From a virus (Duplodnaviria > Heunggongvirae > Uroviricota > Caudoviricetes), in the IMG/VR virus record IMGVR_UViG_2671180268_000014: a stretch of 43,810 bases of DNA; one strand, given 5' to 3'. A model generated the notes under the pieces. The model was not told the origin of the DNA, made no database searches, and worked only from the letters and a program-made list of their open reading frames with translations. Numbering within the stretch: position 1 is the first letter of the stretch; each line of letters opens with the position of its first letter. Of the stretch, positions 20,598-26,610 are shown piece after piece. Both the position numbers and the translations under genes were made by a program.

Positions 20598-20734
20598 AAT
20601 CTTAACTACAATATGATTCATTTTGATGATTGTTTCATAAGGAACAGTGAAGTAAGATCTAAGAGGAGTTAAATTTTATACAGTATAATCATAATATTGC
20701 AGCAAGGTGGTTATAATTGAAAGAATATTTAGAT

Positions 20735-22192
20735 ATGAATACATCTCATGTAAGAGTTGTTACTCATATGTGTGGGTTCCTGGTTTGGCTCTATAGTCTT
20801 TCAATGTTGCCACCAATGGTTGTAGCATTGTTTTATAAAGAAAAAAGCCTGTTCGTTTTCTTTATAACTTTCGTTATATTTTTTTGCATTGGTGGCGGAG
20901 CGTGGTATACAACTAAGAAATCTGGCATTCAATTACGTACCCGTGATGGGTTTATTATAATTGTAATGTTTTGGATTTTGTTTTCTGTTATTAGTGCATT
21001 CCCTTTATGGATTGACTCAGAACTTAATTTAACGTTCATTGATGCTCTGTTTGAAGGGGTTTCTGGAATAACAACAACAGGAGCAACTGTAATTGATGAT
21101 GTTAGTTCATTACCTCGGGCATATTTGTACTATCGGTCACAGTTAAATTTTATAGGTGGTTTAGGAGTTATTGTTCTGGCGGTTGCAGTATTGCCATTAT
21201 TGGGTATTGGTGGTGCAAAGCTTTATCAGTCAGAAATGCCGGGGCCATTTAAGGATGACAAACTCACTCCCCGCCTGGCCGATACGTCACGGACACTGTG
21301 GATAACTTATTCTTTATTAGGTATTGCTTGTATTGTCTGTTATAGACTTGCAGGAATGCCTTTGTTTGATGCTATTTGTCACGGGATTTCCACAGTTTCG
21401 CTTGGTGGTTTCTCAACTCATAGCGAGAGTATCGGATATTTTAATAACTATTTGGTTGAGCTGGTGGCTGGTTCTTTTTCCCTGCTATCGGCTTTCAACT
21501 TCACTCTTTGGTATATTGTTATTAGCAGAAAAACGATAAAACCTTTAATCAGAGATATTGAACTTCGTTTCTTTCTGTTAATAGCCTTAGGGGTGATCAT
21601 TGTTACCTCTTTCCAGGTCTGGCATATAGGTATGTATGACTTGCATGGAAGTTTTATTCATTCGTTTTTTCTTGCCAGCTCCATGCTCACTGATAATGGT
21701 TTAGCTACGCAGGATTATGCAAACTGGCCCACGCACACGATAGTGTTTTTGCTGTTGTCAAGTTTCTTTGGGGGATGTATAGGTTCAACCTGTGGTGGAA
21801 TTAAGTCACTTCGATTTCTTATACTTTTCAAACAAAGCAAACACGAGATAAATCAGCTTTCTCATCCCAGAGCGTTGTTGAGTGTAAATGTAGGAGGGAA
21901 GATAGTTACAGATCGTGTAATGAGGTCTGTATGGAGTTTCTTTTTTCTTTATACTCTCTTCACGGTGTTTTTTATACTGGTGTTAAATGGTATGGGATAT
22001 GATTTTCTTACATCATTTGCAACAGTGGCTGCATGTATTAATAATATGGGATTAGGTTTTGGGGCTACTGCATCGTCATTCGGAGTGCTTAATGACATTG
22101 CAAAATATTTAATGTGCATAGCTATGATTCTTGGTCGCCTTGAAATTTATCCTGTTATTATATTGTTTTCAGGTTTTTTTTGGCGCTCCTAA
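20735..22192 (+). CDS. trkG: TrkH/TrkG-family potassium uptake protein
   Basis: 485-aa polytopic membrane protein from MNTSHVRVVTHMCGFLVWLYSL, matching recalled Rac TrkG. AT-rich relative to neighbours. ORF-track start at 20717 adds 6 residues. Confidence 0.85.
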   Translation: MNTSHVRVVTHMCGFLVWLYSLSMLPPMVVALFYKEKSLFVFFITFVIFFCIGGGAWYTTKKSGIQLRTRDGFIIIVMFWILFSVISAFPLWIDSELNLTFIDALFEGVSGITTTGATVIDDVSSLPRAYLYYRSQLNFIGGLGVIVLAVAVLPLLGIGGAKLYQSEMPGPFKDDKLTPRLADTSRTLWITYSLLGIACIVCYRLAGMPLFDAICHGISTVSLGGFSTHSESIGYFNNYLVELVAGSFSLLSAFNFTLWYIVISRKTIKPLIRDIELRFFLLIALGVIIVTSFQVWHIGMYDLHGSFIHSFFLASSMLTDNGLATQDYANWPTHTIVFLLLSSFFGGCIGSTCGGIKSLRFLILFKQSKHEINQLSHPRALLSVNVGGKIVTDRVMRSVWSFFFLYTLFTVFFILVLNGMGYDFLTSFATVAACINNMGLGFGATASSFGVLNDIAKYLMCIAMILGRLEIYPVIILFSGFFWRS

Positions 22193-22329: not shown

Positions 22330-23118
22330 ATGAGCGAGAAATTAAAGATAGTCTATCGCCCATTACAAGAATTGTCACCGTATGCGCACAACGCCAGGAC
22401 GCACAGTACTGAGCAGGTGGCACAACTGGTAGAAAGTATTAAGCAATTCGGCTGGACTAATCCGGTGCTGATTGACGAAAAGGGCGAAATTATTGCGGGT
22501 CACGGTCGTGTTATGGCGGCTGAAATGCTCAAAATGGATTCTGTTCCGGTCATTGTTCTGTCTGGCCTGACGGATGAGCAGAAAAAGGCGTACCGCCTGG
22601 CAGATAATCGCCTGCCGATGAATGCTGGCTGGGATGAAGATCTGTTGCGGATGGAGCTGTCGGACCTAATCAATGCTGATTTTGATGTCTCCCTGACAGG
22701 CTTCATCCCGGCAGAAATTGATGAACTGTTGACGGATGTTTTGCCCGGTACAGGAAATGAGGAGGAGCCGTATACGACGAAAATTGATACGCCTGTTTAT
22801 GAGCCGTCAGGCGGTAAACCGGATATCAGTGAACTGTACGACGATACGAAAACTCAGGAGCTGATCAGCCGGATACGTTCGGCGTCCCTTGATCCTGATA
22901 TTGAGAAATTCCTCCTGTGTGCAGCAGAACGTCACACGGTGTTTAATTTCAGCAGAATTGCGGACTATTACGCTCATGCCCCCGCTGAAATTCAGTGCCT
23001 TTTCGAGGAGTCGGCGCTGGTGATCATTGATTATCAGCAGGCTATTGAAAATGGATTTGTCCGAATGACGCAGCGCATGGTGGAGATCATGCATGGCGGG
23101 GAGGAGGAATATGCGTGA
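22330..23118 (+). CDS. ParB-like nuclease domain protein (YnaK-like, full length)
   Basis: N-terminal ParB/Srx-like region (LSPYAHNARTHS...GHGRVMAA...YRLADNRL). Immediately upstream of the packaging genes. Confidence 0.6.
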   Translation: MSEKLKIVYRPLQELSPYAHNARTHSTEQVAQLVESIKQFGWTNPVLIDEKGEIIAGHGRVMAAEMLKMDSVPVIVLSGLTDEQKKAYRLADNRLPMNAGWDEDLLRMELSDLINADFDVSLTGFIPAEIDELLTDVLPGTGNEEEPYTTKIDTPVYEPSGGKPDISELYDDTKTQELISRIRSASLDPDIEKFLLCAAERHTVFNFSRIADYYAHAPAEIQCLFEESALVIIDYQQAIENGFVRMTQRMVEIMHGGEEEYA

Positions 23119-24043
23119 TGATTTTTGCGCCTTTATTCTGACTCACGGGCGACCGGACAAAGTTCTGACTTACCGGACGTTGCGTCGTGCTGGCTATACC
23201 GGGAAAATTTTTATCGTTGTTGATGATGAAGATAAGACACGGCATCAGTACATGGCTGAATTTGGTGAACAGGTGCTGGTATTTTCCAAAGCCGATATTG
23301 CTAGTCGTTTTGACGAAGCCGATAATTTTAGTGACCGCCGCTCAATTTTTTACGCCCGTAATGCCTGTTTCGACCAGGCAAAACTGGTCGGGTGTAAATA
23401 CTTCATTCAGCTCGATGATGATTATCACGAGTTCCAGTTTCGGGTGGATCGCAACTATGACCAGGCCTATTTCCCGATAAGGAAACTGGATGAGATCCTT
23501 TCTGAAATGCTTGCGTACTACGAATCAATACCTGCTCTTTCCATCGCTATGTCGCAGGGCGGGGATTTTCTTGGTGACAATGGCGGCCATGCTTCGTGGG
23601 TGAAACGCAAGGCAATGAACAGCTTTATCTGTTCGGTTGATCGACCGTTCTCATTCATGGGGCGCATTAACGAGGATGTGAATACGTACACGAATCTCGG
23701 TCGCTGTGGTGAATTGTTTATGACGATCGGTGCTGTCCAGTTAGGGCAGAAACAGACGCAGAAAAACAGCGGCGGAATGACCGAGCTGTATCTGGATTCC
23801 GGAACCTACGTTAAAAGTTTTTACTCCGTCATGTATGCGCCGTCGTGCGTAAAAATCTCACTTATGGGTGCCAGTCATAAACGCATTCACCATCAGGTCA
23901 CCTGGAACAACGCTGCAGTAAAAATCCTTCACGAAAAATACAGGAAGAAGACACCCTGCATATCAATGGGGGTGACAAATGATTCCGTATTCGAAAGTCG
24001 AGTCTCTGGCAGCGTGCCGGATGACTGCACAACAAATCGCTGA
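23093..24043 (+). CDS. Hypothetical protein (YdaY-like), possible GT-A-like nucleotide-sugar transferase fold
   Basis: Segments AFILTHGRPDK...IFIVVDDED and a later QLDDDY resemble a GT-A Rossmann core with a DxD motif. Weak, motif-level only. Probable start at MRDDF (23111). Confidence 0.35.
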   Translation: MAGRRNMRDDFCAFILTHGRPDKVLTYRTLRRAGYTGKIFIVVDDEDKTRHQYMAEFGEQVLVFSKADIASRFDEADNFSDRRSIFYARNACFDQAKLVGCKYFIQLDDDYHEFQFRVDRNYDQAYFPIRKLDEILSEMLAYYESIPALSIAMSQGGDFLGDNGGHASWVKRKAMNSFICSVDRPFSFMGRINEDVNTYTNLGRCGELFMTIGAVQLGQKQTQKNSGGMTELYLDSGTYVKSFYSVMYAPSCVKISLMGASHKRIHHQVTWNNAAVKILHEKYRKKTPCISMGVTNDSVFESRVSGSVPDDCTTNR

Positions 24044-24230
24044 CGTTCTGGATGTTGATCTGAACCGACTGAAAGAAAATCGGGAAGCAATGACAGATTT
24101 TTATGCGGCCATCCGTAAGGGCAGAGCGAAAGGTGAAGCCGAGTTACGAGCGGCATTGTTTAAGCTTGCCAGAAAAGGGGATGCCTTTGCTCTGCGCGAA
24201 CTACTCAGGGTGGATAAAAATCAGGACTAA
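23979..24230 (+). CDS. Small HTH-like protein upstream of terS
   Basis: 83-aa ORF overlapping the 3' end of the previous gene; TAQQIADVLDVDLNRLKENREAM is HTH-like. Start uncertain (possibly the Met at 24021). Confidence 0.3.
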   Translation: MIPYSKVESLAACRMTAQQIADVLDVDLNRLKENREAMTDFYAAIRKGRAKGEAELRAALFKLARKGDAFALRELLRVDKNQD

Positions 24231-24233
24231 CTG

Positions 24234-25328
24234 ATGAGCAGACCGGACTGGGGGGCGTTGCAGCAGGAGTATATTGCTGAATACACCCGCTCCGGTATAT
24301 CTCCGGTGGCATGGTGTGAAGCAAGGGGACTGAATTACGCAACAGCCCGTCGTTACATCAAAAAAACTCCGAAAAATGCGCAGACAGAAATGTGCAAAAC
24401 TGCGCAAAAAAGTGCGCAGAAAAAATCTGCGCAGACTGCACAAAAGCGGAACGAAAAATCTCAGGAAAAAAAGCCAGTATTCGATGCGGGCCTGAATGAG
24501 GGCGACGCGGAGGAATTTTCGTTCTGTCCCGATGAATTCGGCATTTCTGACCAGCAGGCTAAGTTTGCGATGCTTGTTGCTCAGGGTAAAAAGCCGACAG
24601 AGGCGTACCGACTAGCCGGTTATGAGGGGCAAGGTGCGACAGCTAACAGCAACGCCAGTCGTATGCTTAGAAATGCCAGGGTTTTTCGCGCTATCAGCTA
24701 CTTCCGCAATCAGTACCAGAAACGCTATACCGCAGACCTGGATTTACTAGTGAGTCAGTTGATGGCTATTGTCCTGGCCGACCCCAATCAGCTTGCACAA
24801 TTTCGCCGTGTTAACTGCCGTTATTGCTGGGGCGAGAATCATCTCTACCAGTGGCGCGATATAGCAGAATTCGACAAGGCAGCGGCGCAGGCTTCCAGAG
24901 ATGGCAAACCCGAACCGGAATATGGAGGCCTCGGCTTTGTTGATAACGCCATACCCAATCCGGACTGCCCGAAGTGCTGCGGTGAGGGAACGGGACAGCT
25001 TTATATGGCTGATACCACTCTGCTTGATGGGGATGCGCGGCAATTATATGCAGGGGCAAAATTCGGAAAATTCGGCGTTGAGATCCTGCTGGAGGATAAG
25101 GCTGCCGCCCGGCGTGAATTGTTGCGTTTGTTTTCTGCTGGCGGGGCTTTATGTGCAGATAAGCGGCTACGGGAACTGGAAATTGAACGGCGCAGAATGG
25201 AAAACCAGAAGCTGCGCAAAGAGATCGAAACGGTGGAAGATAATGAACATCCCCAGCCTGTGGCGATCAATATTAATGTGGTTGATGCCAGAGTAAGGAG
25301 TGATGAAGATGATCTCTCCGACGCTTAA
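24234..25328 (+). CDS. Terminase small subunit (putative), with zinc-ribbon and AQK-rich linker
   Basis: Immediately upstream of and overlapping terL. Contains CRYCWGENH...CPKCCGEG (two CxxC) and a low-complexity AQK-rich N-terminal stretch that coincides with a DNA repeat array. Confidence 0.55.
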   Translation: MSRPDWGALQQEYIAEYTRSGISPVAWCEARGLNYATARRYIKKTPKNAQTEMCKTAQKSAQKKSAQTAQKRNEKSQEKKPVFDAGLNEGDAEEFSFCPDEFGISDQQAKFAMLVAQGKKPTEAYRLAGYEGQGATANSNASRMLRNARVFRAISYFRNQYQKRYTADLDLLVSQLMAIVLADPNQLAQFRRVNCRYCWGENHLYQWRDIAEFDKAAAQASRDGKPEPEYGGLGFVDNAIPNPDCPKCCGEGTGQLYMADTTLLDGDARQLYAGAKFGKFGVEILLEDKAAARRELLRLFSAGGALCADKRLRELEIERRRMENQKLRKEIETVEDNEHPQPVAININVVDARVRSDEDDLSDA

Positions 25329-26610
25329 TGTGCCTCAGGCGCGATTTCTTTCAATGCCCCATAAATTTAAAGCCTATATTGCTGGTTTTGGCTCGGGCAA
25401 AACATGGGTTGGGTGTGGCGGCATATGCAAGGGGATTTGGGAGCATCCAGGTATAAATCAGGGATATTTTGCGCCAACGTATCCCCAAATTCGCGATATT
25501 TTTTACCCTACAGTGGAAGAAGTTGCTGCTGACTGGGGATTGAACGTAAAAATTAATGAGGGAAATAAAGAGGTTCACTTTTATTACGGACGCCAGTATC
25601 GGGGAACCACTATCTGCAGATCGATGGAGAAGCCACAAACGATCGTCGGTTTCAAAATTGGTAATGCGTTGGTGGATGAACTGGACATTTTGCCGAAGGA
25701 AAAAGCCAGAACGGCGTGGCGCAAGATAATTGCACGTATGCGTTATAAGATTGATGGACTTCGCAACGGTATTGACGTTACAACCACGCCGGAAGGATTC
25801 AAATTTGTCTACGAGCAGTTTGTTAAAGCCGTGCGTGAAAAAACAGAGCTGGCCTCACTGTATGGTCTGGTGCAGGCATCTACTTTCGATAATGAAAAGA
25901 ACCTGCCAGCAGATTACATTCCTTCGCTTCTTGAATCATACCCTCCAGAGCTGATTAAAGCCTATCTTCGAGGACAGTTTACTAACCTGACAAGTGGTAC
26001 TGTTTACCATCAGTTTGACCGGAAACTGAATAATTGCGAAGAAGTGGAGCAGCCAGGGGAGCCGATTTATATTGGGATGGATTTTAACGTTGGAAAGATG
26101 GCGGGAATCGTCCATGTGCTGCGTTTGGGGCTTCCATGTGCGGTAACTGAAATCATCAATGCCTACGATACGCCGGATATGATCCGCATCATTAAAGAAC
26201 GCTTCTGGCTGTATGATGGGAATGATTACCGGAAAGTGAGGGAAATTTATATTTATCCAGATGCTTCCGGGGATTCCAGAAAATCAAGTAACGCAAGTAC
26301 GACGGATATAGCCCAGCTTAAGCAGGCTGGTTTTAACGTTGTGGTGAACAGCTCGAACCCGCCAGTAAAAGATCGCGTTAACTCAATGAATGCAATGTTC
26401 TGCAATGCCAATGGTGAGCGTCGCTATAAAGTTAATGTGAAGCGTTGCCCGTTATATGCCGAATCTCTGGAGCAACAGGTCTGGGATGAGAAGGGGGAGC
26501 CTGATAAAAAATCTGGCAATGATCACCCGAATGATGCCGGAGGTTATTTCATCGTTAAGCAATTCCCTATTGTCAAACCGACCGGAAGAGTCACATCACT
26601 TCGGATTTAA
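25300..26610 (+). CDS. Terminase large subunit
   Basis: Walker A-like GFGSGKTW near the N-terminus; 436 aa; followed directly by the portal gene. Start may be a few codons downstream. Confidence 0.8.
   Translation: MMKMISPTLNVPQARFLSMPHKFKAYIAGFGSGKTWVGCGGICKGIWEHPGINQGYFAPTYPQIRDIFYPTVEEVAADWGLNVKINEGNKEVHFYYGRQYRGTTICRSMEKPQTIVGFKIGNALVDELDILPKEKARTAWRKIIARMRYKIDGLRNGIDVTTTPEGFKFVYEQFVKAVREKTELASLYGLVQASTFDNEKNLPADYIPSLLESYPPELIKAYLRGQFTNLTSGTVYHQFDRKLNNCEEVEQPGEPIYIGMDFNVGKMAGIVHVLRLGLPCAVTEIINAYDTPDMIRIIKERFWLYDGNDYRKVREIYIYPDASGDSRKSSNASTTDIAQLKQAGFNVVVNSSNPPVKDRVNSMNAMFCNANGERRYKVNVKRCPLYAESLEQQVWDEKGEPDKKSGNDHPNDAGGYFIVKQFPIVKPTGRVTSLRI

Follow-up and report, generated by a model that had tools for sequence, protein, structure and literature searches.

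The locus described here raises the question of why several copies of one hexanucleotide, TGCGCA, are crowded into the 5' part of a gene for a small terminase subunit, and whether they serve the packaging of viral DNA. The gene, terS, occupies positions 24234 to 25328 on the + strand of the IMG/VR viral record IMGVR_UViG_2671180268_000014; the whole stretch of 43,810 nucleotides that was analyzed is referred to as the window. A sequence-only reading had proposed that the hexamers form a candidate recognition (pac) site for the terminase. This proposal was strengthened by our analysis: the array is tied to an N-terminal domain of the small terminase protein TerS, its hexamer changes with the third helix of that domain, the domain is homologous to PacA of phage P1, where pac hexamers are found at the equivalent place (PMC10028697), and the genes upstream of terS proved dispensable. 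Sequence comparison leads us to conclude that the array is probably the TerS recognition (pac) element of its own terminase, a variant of the P1 type with a new hexamer and a single cluster.

Hexamer array in the 5' part of terS

Direct reading confirmed all six hexamer positions reported earlier. The array, a candidate TerS recognition element without assigned strand, extends from 24377 to 24442 (codons 48 to 70, nt 144 to 209 of terS), starts 12 nt past the end of the sequence encoding the N-terminal domain, and comprises four perfect TGCGCA copies and two copies with one mismatch. The perfect copies, likewise without strand, are hexamer 1 (24377 to 24382; AAT GCG CAG, encoding Asn-Ala-Gln), hexamer 3 (24401 to 24406; ACT GCG CAA), hexamer 4 (24413 to 24418; AGT GCG CAG), and hexamer 5 (24428 to 24433; TCT GCG CAG). 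The degenerate copies, read on the + strand, are hexamer 2 (TGTGCA; 24391 to 24396; ATG TGC AAA, encoding Met-Cys-Lys) and hexamer 6 (TGCACA, the reverse complement of TGTGCA; 24437 to 24442; ACT GCA CAA). Most close relatives have TGCGCA at the position of hexamer 2 (ATG CGC AAA, Met-Arg-Lys), and many have it at that of hexamer 6, indicating that the two deviating copies in the window arose by recent point mutation.

Over the whole window, TGCGCA is present at the expected frequency (19 copies in 43,810 bp versus 18.3 ± 4.2 expected), and 4 of the 19 are packed into 57 bp. When 300 sequences were simulated with a first-order Markov model, the maximum number of TGCGCA per 60 bp was one in 207 runs, two in 92, three in a single run, and four in none. 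The region from 24360 to 24480 is composed of 49% A and 11% T. Related arrays share a consensus with A-rich flanks close to AAAA(C)TGCGCA(A/G)AA. The array was not absent from close relatives with at least 84% protein identity; all 82 of them hold 4 to 7 copies of TGCGCA. Wider relatives have 2 to 8 copies per array, mostly 4 to 5.

The hexamers in the window are separated by 14, 10, 12, 15, and 9 bp (mean, 12 bp; total, 66 bp). This had been described as roughly helical spacing, a claim that did not survive comparison: spacings of 7, 9, 10, 12, 14, 15, 16, and 21 bp occur over 81 unique related arrays, with no single period. Helical phasing and A-tract bending were rejected on the basis of these aperiodic distances (9 to 15 bp in the window, 7 to 21 bp in relatives), and curvature is therefore not claimed.

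Conservation of the array at the DNA level

Most hexamers in the window are found in the frame xxT GCG CAR, which encodes (Asn/Thr/Ser)-Ala-Gln. The repeats could be the mere DNA image of a low-complexity peptide (AQK/SAQ) born by slippage, with the DNA itself unselected. The encoded linker is indeed of low complexity and predicted to be disordered, and close relatives gain or lose whole units, for example, ACTGCGCAG. We surveyed the reading frames of 380 TGCGCA sites from 81 unique arrays, also taking in 160 viral contigs. The frame xxT GCG CAx accounted for 295 sites, which share the peptide pattern (T/S/N/P)AQ, typically TAQ or SAQ. However, the remaining 85 sites used the other two frames, xTG CGC Axx (71 sites; Met/Val/Leu-Arg-x, such as MRK or VRT) and TGC GCA (14 sites; Cys-Ala-x, such as CAE). 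Even in the majority frame, the codon preceding alanine ends in T whether it encodes Asn, Thr, Ser, Pro, or Ile.

Synonymous recoding also spoke against a peptide origin. When the same 28-residue peptide was recoded according to the codon usage of the late genes in the window, the probability of obtaining at least four TGCGCA was 2.2e-4. Across 96 related arrays, a mean of 5.0 copies was observed versus 0.54 by synonymous resampling, an approximately 9-fold excess. Homologues from Serratia, Buttiauxella, and Superficieibacter, with 52 to 55% protein identity, keep 4 to 5 copies, and their linker peptides cannot be aligned. Since the hexamer is kept while its frame shifts and the linker peptides become unalignable, the DNA motif is the conserved entity. 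The array is constrained at the DNA level, as the sequence-only reading had supposed in regarding the DNA repeats rather than the peptide as the selected feature. The hexamer moreover switches with one residue of a separate protein domain, as described below, which a peptide image would not explain, and we consider the slippage explanation scarcely credible.

N-terminal domain of TerS and its relation to PacA

TerS has 364 residues, and about 100 of these at the N terminus are extra in comparison with short members of the family. The short Terminase_2 TerS proteins lack the N-terminal domain and begin at the canonical helix-turn-helix (LFVxEYL...NATQAAIRAGYS). The alignment of 23 close homologues used for an AlphaFold model was shallow; the mean predicted local distance difference test (pLDDT) score of the model was 49, and only the N-terminal domain and the core helix-turn-helix region were usable. 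Residues 1 to 44 (24234 to 24365, + strand) form a candidate PacA-like helix-turn-helix domain with predicted helices at aa 6 to 20, 24 to 30, and 35 to 43, the third of which reads YATARRYIKK. A Lys/Ala/Gln-rich linker (aa 45 to 95; 24366 to 24518, + strand), in whose coding DNA the array lies, is predicted to be disordered (pLDDT, 24 to 46; all values for residues 44 to 94 are below 50). The canonical Terminase_2 helix-turn-helix region of the core follows at aa 105 to 160 (24546 to 24713, + strand; pLDDT, 75 to 88). It aligns with the N terminus of short TerS homologues and weakly matches the Pam5 small terminase.

The relation to PacA was found in both directions. The N-terminal 100 residues of TerS match PHROG 1711, the P1 PacA family, with an E value of 4.5e-6, and PacA reciprocally matches PHROG 370, the family of Shiga toxin (Stx)-type TerS, with an E value of 4.5e-5. 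A profile of 16 N-terminal domains compared with PacA (aa 1 to 60 used) by hhalign gave a match to PacA aa 3 to 41 over 39 columns (probability, 91%; E value, 1.1e-6), and BLASTP of the domain against PacA gave an E value of 0.004. A narrow hidden Markov model of the domain built from close relatives left PacA and the Erwinia and pPE4 types described below undetected, and profile-profile comparison was needed; the profile-profile link to the Erwinia type was weak (probability, 57%). A Pfam search with the isolated domain yielded only noise at E values of 10 or less, and the homologous stretch of PacA has sub-threshold matches to HTH_23 and HTH_28. Searches of PDB by sequence returned nothing useful for TerS or for the large terminase subunit TerL.

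Co-variation of the hexamer with the third helix

The array is linked to the PacA-like N-terminal domain of TerS and co-varies with it. Counted over member sequences that are related to one another, domains with the third-helix sequence ARRYIK were accompanied by at least three TGCGCA in 77 of 78 unique cases and by at least three TGCGAA/TTCGCA in none, and AKRYIK domains by at least three TGCGAA/TTCGCA in all 59 unique cases, often as the palindrome TGCGAATTCGCA. The AKRYIK domains belong to Yersinia, Providencia, and other prophages, in which TGCGAAT half-sites and TGCGAATTCGCA palindromes replace TGCGCA; a few AKRHIK variants carry overlapping TGCGAATGCGCA composites. K-type and R-type domains do not form two deep clades. 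Over aa 1 to 35, 9 of 24 K-type domains have an R-type nearest neighbor, and some pairs of domains that differ at 2 of 43 residues (R39K with H11D, or R39K with T37S) have hexamer counts of 5/0 versus 0/5. Because R39K is associated with the replacement of C by A at hexamer position 5, this base pair is probably read by residue 39.

Further pairings were found in more distant groups. The lineage of Stx phage 933W combines the third helix ARTRIKM with four to five copies of CGATCAT, and its sister group, with the same core, combines ARRYIKL with five to eight TGCGCA in three frames. Inspection of 933W-type TerS (933W, NC_000924, 28775 to 28960; phi345, 1201 to 1500 of its excerpt) revealed a homologous N-terminal domain with the third helix NTARTRIKM. 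Next come the four to five CGATCAT repeats (encoding IDH or TDH), every one of which includes a GATC target of Dam, and two TGCGCA follow after about another 70 nt. These 933W-type elements are a candidate Dam-sensitive, bipartite, P1-like pac site. The GenBank record of phi345 ends inside terS; we rejected this as a mapped DNA end, as the record merely begins near terL. A more distant type of the domain, found in Erwinia, Izhakiella, and relatives, is followed by two to four GGGGCA(AAAAA) and then one to three inverted TGCCCC(AAAAA) in several frames, which reads as a convergent arrangement of a nonpalindromic motif. The pPE4-type domain pairs with GTGGAAAC.

Linkage of the domain to the array and other candidate binders

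The combination of domain and array was found on differing TerS cores, namely, Terminase_2, Sf6_terminase, and unclassified ones. The TerL encoded beside it belonged to Terminase_6 or Terminase_3, and those scanned matched no other Pfam terminase family. The only constant neighbor of the array was the N-terminal domain itself. This bears on whether the hexamers are bound by another protein, be it the 83-residue PHROG 309-like product of the open reading frame preceding terS (ORF83; 23979 to 24230), the ParB-like protein, or a host factor. ORF83 resembles part of a small-terminase family, ParB-N proteins bind DNA, and Rac-type prophages encode both a short distance upstream of terS. However, ORF83, ParB-N, and the TET-associated glycosyltransferase (TAGT) encoded next to them were missing from 160 of 160 non-Rac loci carrying the same domain and array, and all three were rejected as binders. 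Within one host group, the hexamer changes with TerS R39K, for which a host factor offers no explanation. Binding by another protein is thus given very little credence.

In the reverse test, IMG/VR was scanned for a pattern of three TGCGCA at short distances, and at least 120 loci were returned. Among the matches listed, the domain was encoded immediately upstream of the triple TGCGCA in 73 of 120. The other 47 were coding tandem repeats, intergenic sites, GC-rich chance matches, and contig-end cuts, with 3 of the 47 ending at a contig edge. A triple-TGCGCA array is therefore not exclusive to the N-terminal domain among these matches.

Two phages have a mosaic joint in this region. In phage Rac-SA53 (KU052037; 1112 to 2140 of its excerpt), the annotation of terS describes two genes fused through a deletion. 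The N-terminal domain has been lost and the junction lies within the array, of whose five remaining hexamers two are intact and three are substituted. Genes for heat-labile enterotoxin IIa are located just upstream of the fused terS. Phage vB_Apl-pPE4 (PP818812, labeled an Actinobacillus phage) has a Rac-type TerS core with 93% DNA identity to the window and another type of N-terminal domain (907 to 1200 of its excerpt) with GTTTCCAC/GTGGAAAC repeats. The TerS of phage ES18 is of the short type and lacks the domain.

The array could, on this evidence, be mainly a recombination junction that provides microhomology for swapping N-terminal modules between terminase genes. Similarity to the window begins inside the array in Rac-SA53 and just past the linker in pPE4, and the cassette of domain and array is found on several differing cores. 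Such a role leaves unexplained both the frame-independent conservation of one exact hexamer and its co-variation with the third helix, and mosaic joints at linkers are expected in any case. We consider it very unlikely to be the main function; a role as recombination joint may be a side effect.

Proposed recognition mechanism and packaging mode

If the array is the recognition element of its own terminase, TerS would consist of an ordinary Terminase_2 core to which a three-helix domain is attached at the N terminus by a flexible, basic linker of about 50 residues, and the hexamer recognized by the domain would be present, in four to seven copies, in the DNA encoding this linker. On concatemeric phage DNA, each N-terminal domain of the TerS oligomer would bind one TGCGCA, and weak single contacts would sum to a specific multivalent complex by avidity. 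Arg39 in the third helix is proposed to contact base pair 5 of the hexamer, the arginine pairing with the G of the C:G pair, while the A-rich flanks would be gripped nonspecifically by the basic linker together with the ring formed by the core helix-turn-helix motifs. TerL would then be recruited, make the first cut nearby, and start headful packaging from there. Reader domain and sites lie within about 210 bp (nt 1 to 209 of terS) and would therefore be inherited and exchanged as one cassette; travel as one unit would account for the presence of the cassette on TerS cores that are unrelated.

Binding of the hexamers by the N-terminal domain might instead serve regulation, either autoregulation of terS and terL or a roadblock in the late operon. 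Sites inside the gene of the presumed reader are the classic layout of autoregulation, and our computations fit regulatory and packaging binding alike. Against this, the domain was found only at the N terminus of small terminases, on several cores, the homologous element of P1 is an experimentally defined packaging and cleavage site (PMC10028697), and four to seven sites over about 65 bp of coding region would be unusual for an operator. Regulation is less parsimonious than packaging because of the restriction of the domain to small terminases and the nature of the P1 homologue, and we regard it as unlikely.

Several points weigh against assigning the array to packaging by TerS or limit how far the assignment can be taken. 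The sequences behind the co-variation counts are related, and the counts are therefore not independent events. Individual hexamers vary by mutation among close relatives, and thus no single copy is essential. The third helix of P1 PacA reads ARRYL, yet its hexamer is TGATCA; the hexamer is thus not set by the third helix alone, and other residues contribute. No further site with up to one mismatch was found in 24443 to 24577, no consensus for integration host factor (IHF) in 24300 to 24700, and no second hexamer cluster within about 350 bp downstream in the window; some relatives have a second small cluster 50 to 70 nt downstream. The candidate three-helix helix-turn-helix structure of residues 1 to 44 is predicted with moderate confidence (pLDDT, 68 to 80) on a shallow alignment, and a Foldseek search of PDB with the whole TerS model gave no match at an E value of 0.001 or less, a result that is uninformative. 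The searchable part of the literature holds no packaging data for the Rac-type, 933W-type, Yersinia, or Providencia phages that carry the cassette. Finally, we infer headful packaging only from the TerL families, the nearest isolated phages, and the P1 precedent. By TerL, the closest isolated phages are Jersey-like, Dhillonvirus, and Kagunavirus siphoviruses (40 to 44% identity), which are headful packagers. P1, also a headful packager, is the one experimentally characterized phage with a homologous TerS N-terminal domain.

Prophage context and other packaging genes

The window represents a complete lambdoid prophage of the Rac type from Escherichia coli. Strain EC2 (NZ_CP058571) has an identical stretch, flanked by recE, racC, kilR, sieB, ydaS-V, lysis genes, trkG, and ynaK, after which genes for the terminase, portal, P22-type capsid, and lambda-like tail follow. 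Among 5,426 complete E. coli genomes, 906 contain DNA with at least 80% identity to the terS region, as do ten records of induced phages. The terS product matches Pfam Terminase_2 over aa 122 to 321 (E value, 3.8e-8) and PHROG 51 (7e-75), and RefSeq genomes of E. coli label this open reading frame as a terminase small subunit. It is followed by terL (25300 to 26610, + strand), the gene for the large terminase subunit, with matches to Pfam Terminase_6N (3.7e-33) and Terminase_6C (3.4e-10); its product is presumed to be the nuclease/ATPase partner of TerS.

Within the core of TerS, C195/C198 and C245/C248 (24816 to 24827 and 24966 to 24977 of the window) form a CxxC...CxxC pair (NCRYCWGE ... CPKCxGEG) that is invariant in 10 of 10 aligned homologues, down to 30% identity. 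The pair is probably a zinc ribbon inserted in the oligomerization region, where the confidence of the AlphaFold model is low.

Upstream of terS, the potassium transporter gene trkG (20717 to 22192, + strand) is cargo between the lysis and packaging genes, as in the Rac prophage of K-12. It is followed by an intact version of K-12 ynaK (22330 to 23118, + strand), which encodes a protein with a ParB_N domain, and by a gene for a TAGT protein (23093 to 24043, + strand; Pfam TAGT, 4e-34; PHROG 842), which RefSeq names GREB1-related protein. This pair lies directly upstream of the terminase genes and is kept in relatives close to Rac and in two of three diverged enterobacterial relatives. The product of ORF83 (+ strand; just 5' of terS) aligns with the central part of PHROG 309, a family annotated as terminase small subunit (8e-23). 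No match was obtained in a Pfam scan. ORF83 may encode a second small DNA-binding packaging protein or be a remnant.

Wider reading and significance

A broader reading is that domain and array represent a widespread, portable combination of a reader and its label, with at least five specificity classes, which is swapped between unrelated cores and can be retargeted by one third-helix substitution (R39K); on this we are evenly divided. The proposed classes are TGCGCA, TGCGAA/TTCGCA, CGATCAT, GGGGCA/TGCCCC, and GTGGAAAC, and the TGATCA of P1 would be a sixth. If true, this would amount to a natural recognition code for packaging specificity and would allow the pac sites to be predicted in both Rac-type prophages and Shiga toxin phages of the 933W type. 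The system has practical reach: related terS occurs in the 906 of 5,426 E. coli genomes, and the homologous cassette in the 933W-type phages. A portable cassette with several specificities and switches of nearly a single residue appears not to have been described before. Within the searchable literature, we found no paper that ties TGCGCA to a terminase or pac or that describes the array.

How small terminases select viral DNA has been described as unclear and controversial, and sequence-specific binding to pac has been hard to show in vitro for P22, Sf6, SPP1, and SF6 (PMC9611059). The cassette combines a short, defined hexamer with a small reader domain that can be separated, and naturally occurring versions with one or two residue differences use other hexamers, so recognition is directly testable. 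A predicted pac site also tells where lateral transduction of neighboring chromosomal genes would start, and the array is a small DNA tag that might serve to load plasmids into particles.

Comparison with known systems

The cosB site of lambda consists of three 16-bp R elements and an IHF site, is bound by gpNu1, and serves cos packaging. As in the arrangement proposed here, an N-terminal (winged) helix-turn-helix in the small subunit recognizes several short sites and so positions the large subunit for its initial cut. In lambda, however, the sites lie upstream of Nu1 and not within its coding sequence, whereas those described here are inside terS, and a GpA-type TerL generates cohesive ends, in contrast to the Terminase_6N/6C enzyme of the window. 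The papers on cosB and gpNu1 are cited in a review (PMC9611059).

The TerS core of the window belongs to the same Pfam family, Terminase_2, as G1P of SPP1 and SF6. In these phages, pac overlaps the 5' end of terS with multiple contacts (PMC9611059, PMC4737164), and a ring of core helix-turn-helix motifs binds largely without sequence specificity (PMC4737164). The difference is that specificity here appears to come from an extra domain on a tether, which has a repeated hexamer of its own. With P22, the locus shares the location of the site inside terS; P22 pac lies in gene 3, and its wobble positions can be altered without change to the protein (PMC11260489). It is a single asymmetric 22-bp site rather than a repeat array, and its TerS belongs to another family.

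In P1, pac is a 161-bp segment within pacA with seven TGATCA/G repeats that contain Dam sites; synonymous mutation of the hexamers cuts the titer approximately 9-fold, and they are needed for efficient packaging (PMC10028697). We read the P1 sequence directly and found TGATCA/G at nt 194, 201, 213, and 228 and at nt 324, 336, 347, and 375 of pacA. These hexamers span nt 194 to 233 and 324 to 380 in two frames with 7-, 12-, and 15-bp spacing; between the two groups lie the IHF site and the cleavage positions annotated at nt 276 to 285.

The two systems differ in several respects. The hexamer is TGCGCA here and TGATCA/G in P1, and the array lacks GATC, so the control by Dam methylation described for P1 cannot apply. 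A single cluster of four to six copies stands against the 4 + 3 copies of P1 that flank IHF and cut site. The remainder of TerS is a Terminase_2 core with the CxxC...CxxC insertion and is not PacA-like, and TerL is of the Terminase_6N/6C type and not PacB, which has no such Pfam match. The phage described here is a lambdoid prophage of siphovirus type, whereas P1 is of the plasmid prophage type. What they share is an N-terminal domain homologous to that of PacA and an array placed within the small-terminase gene, shortly 3' of the part encoding the N-terminal helix-turn-helix. In both, this array is a cluster in which a single palindromic hexamer of the form TGNNCA recurs at 7- to 15-bp spacing and in two or more reading frames, with at least four copies of the hexanucleotide a few base pairs apart (here, four perfect copies and two with one mismatch).

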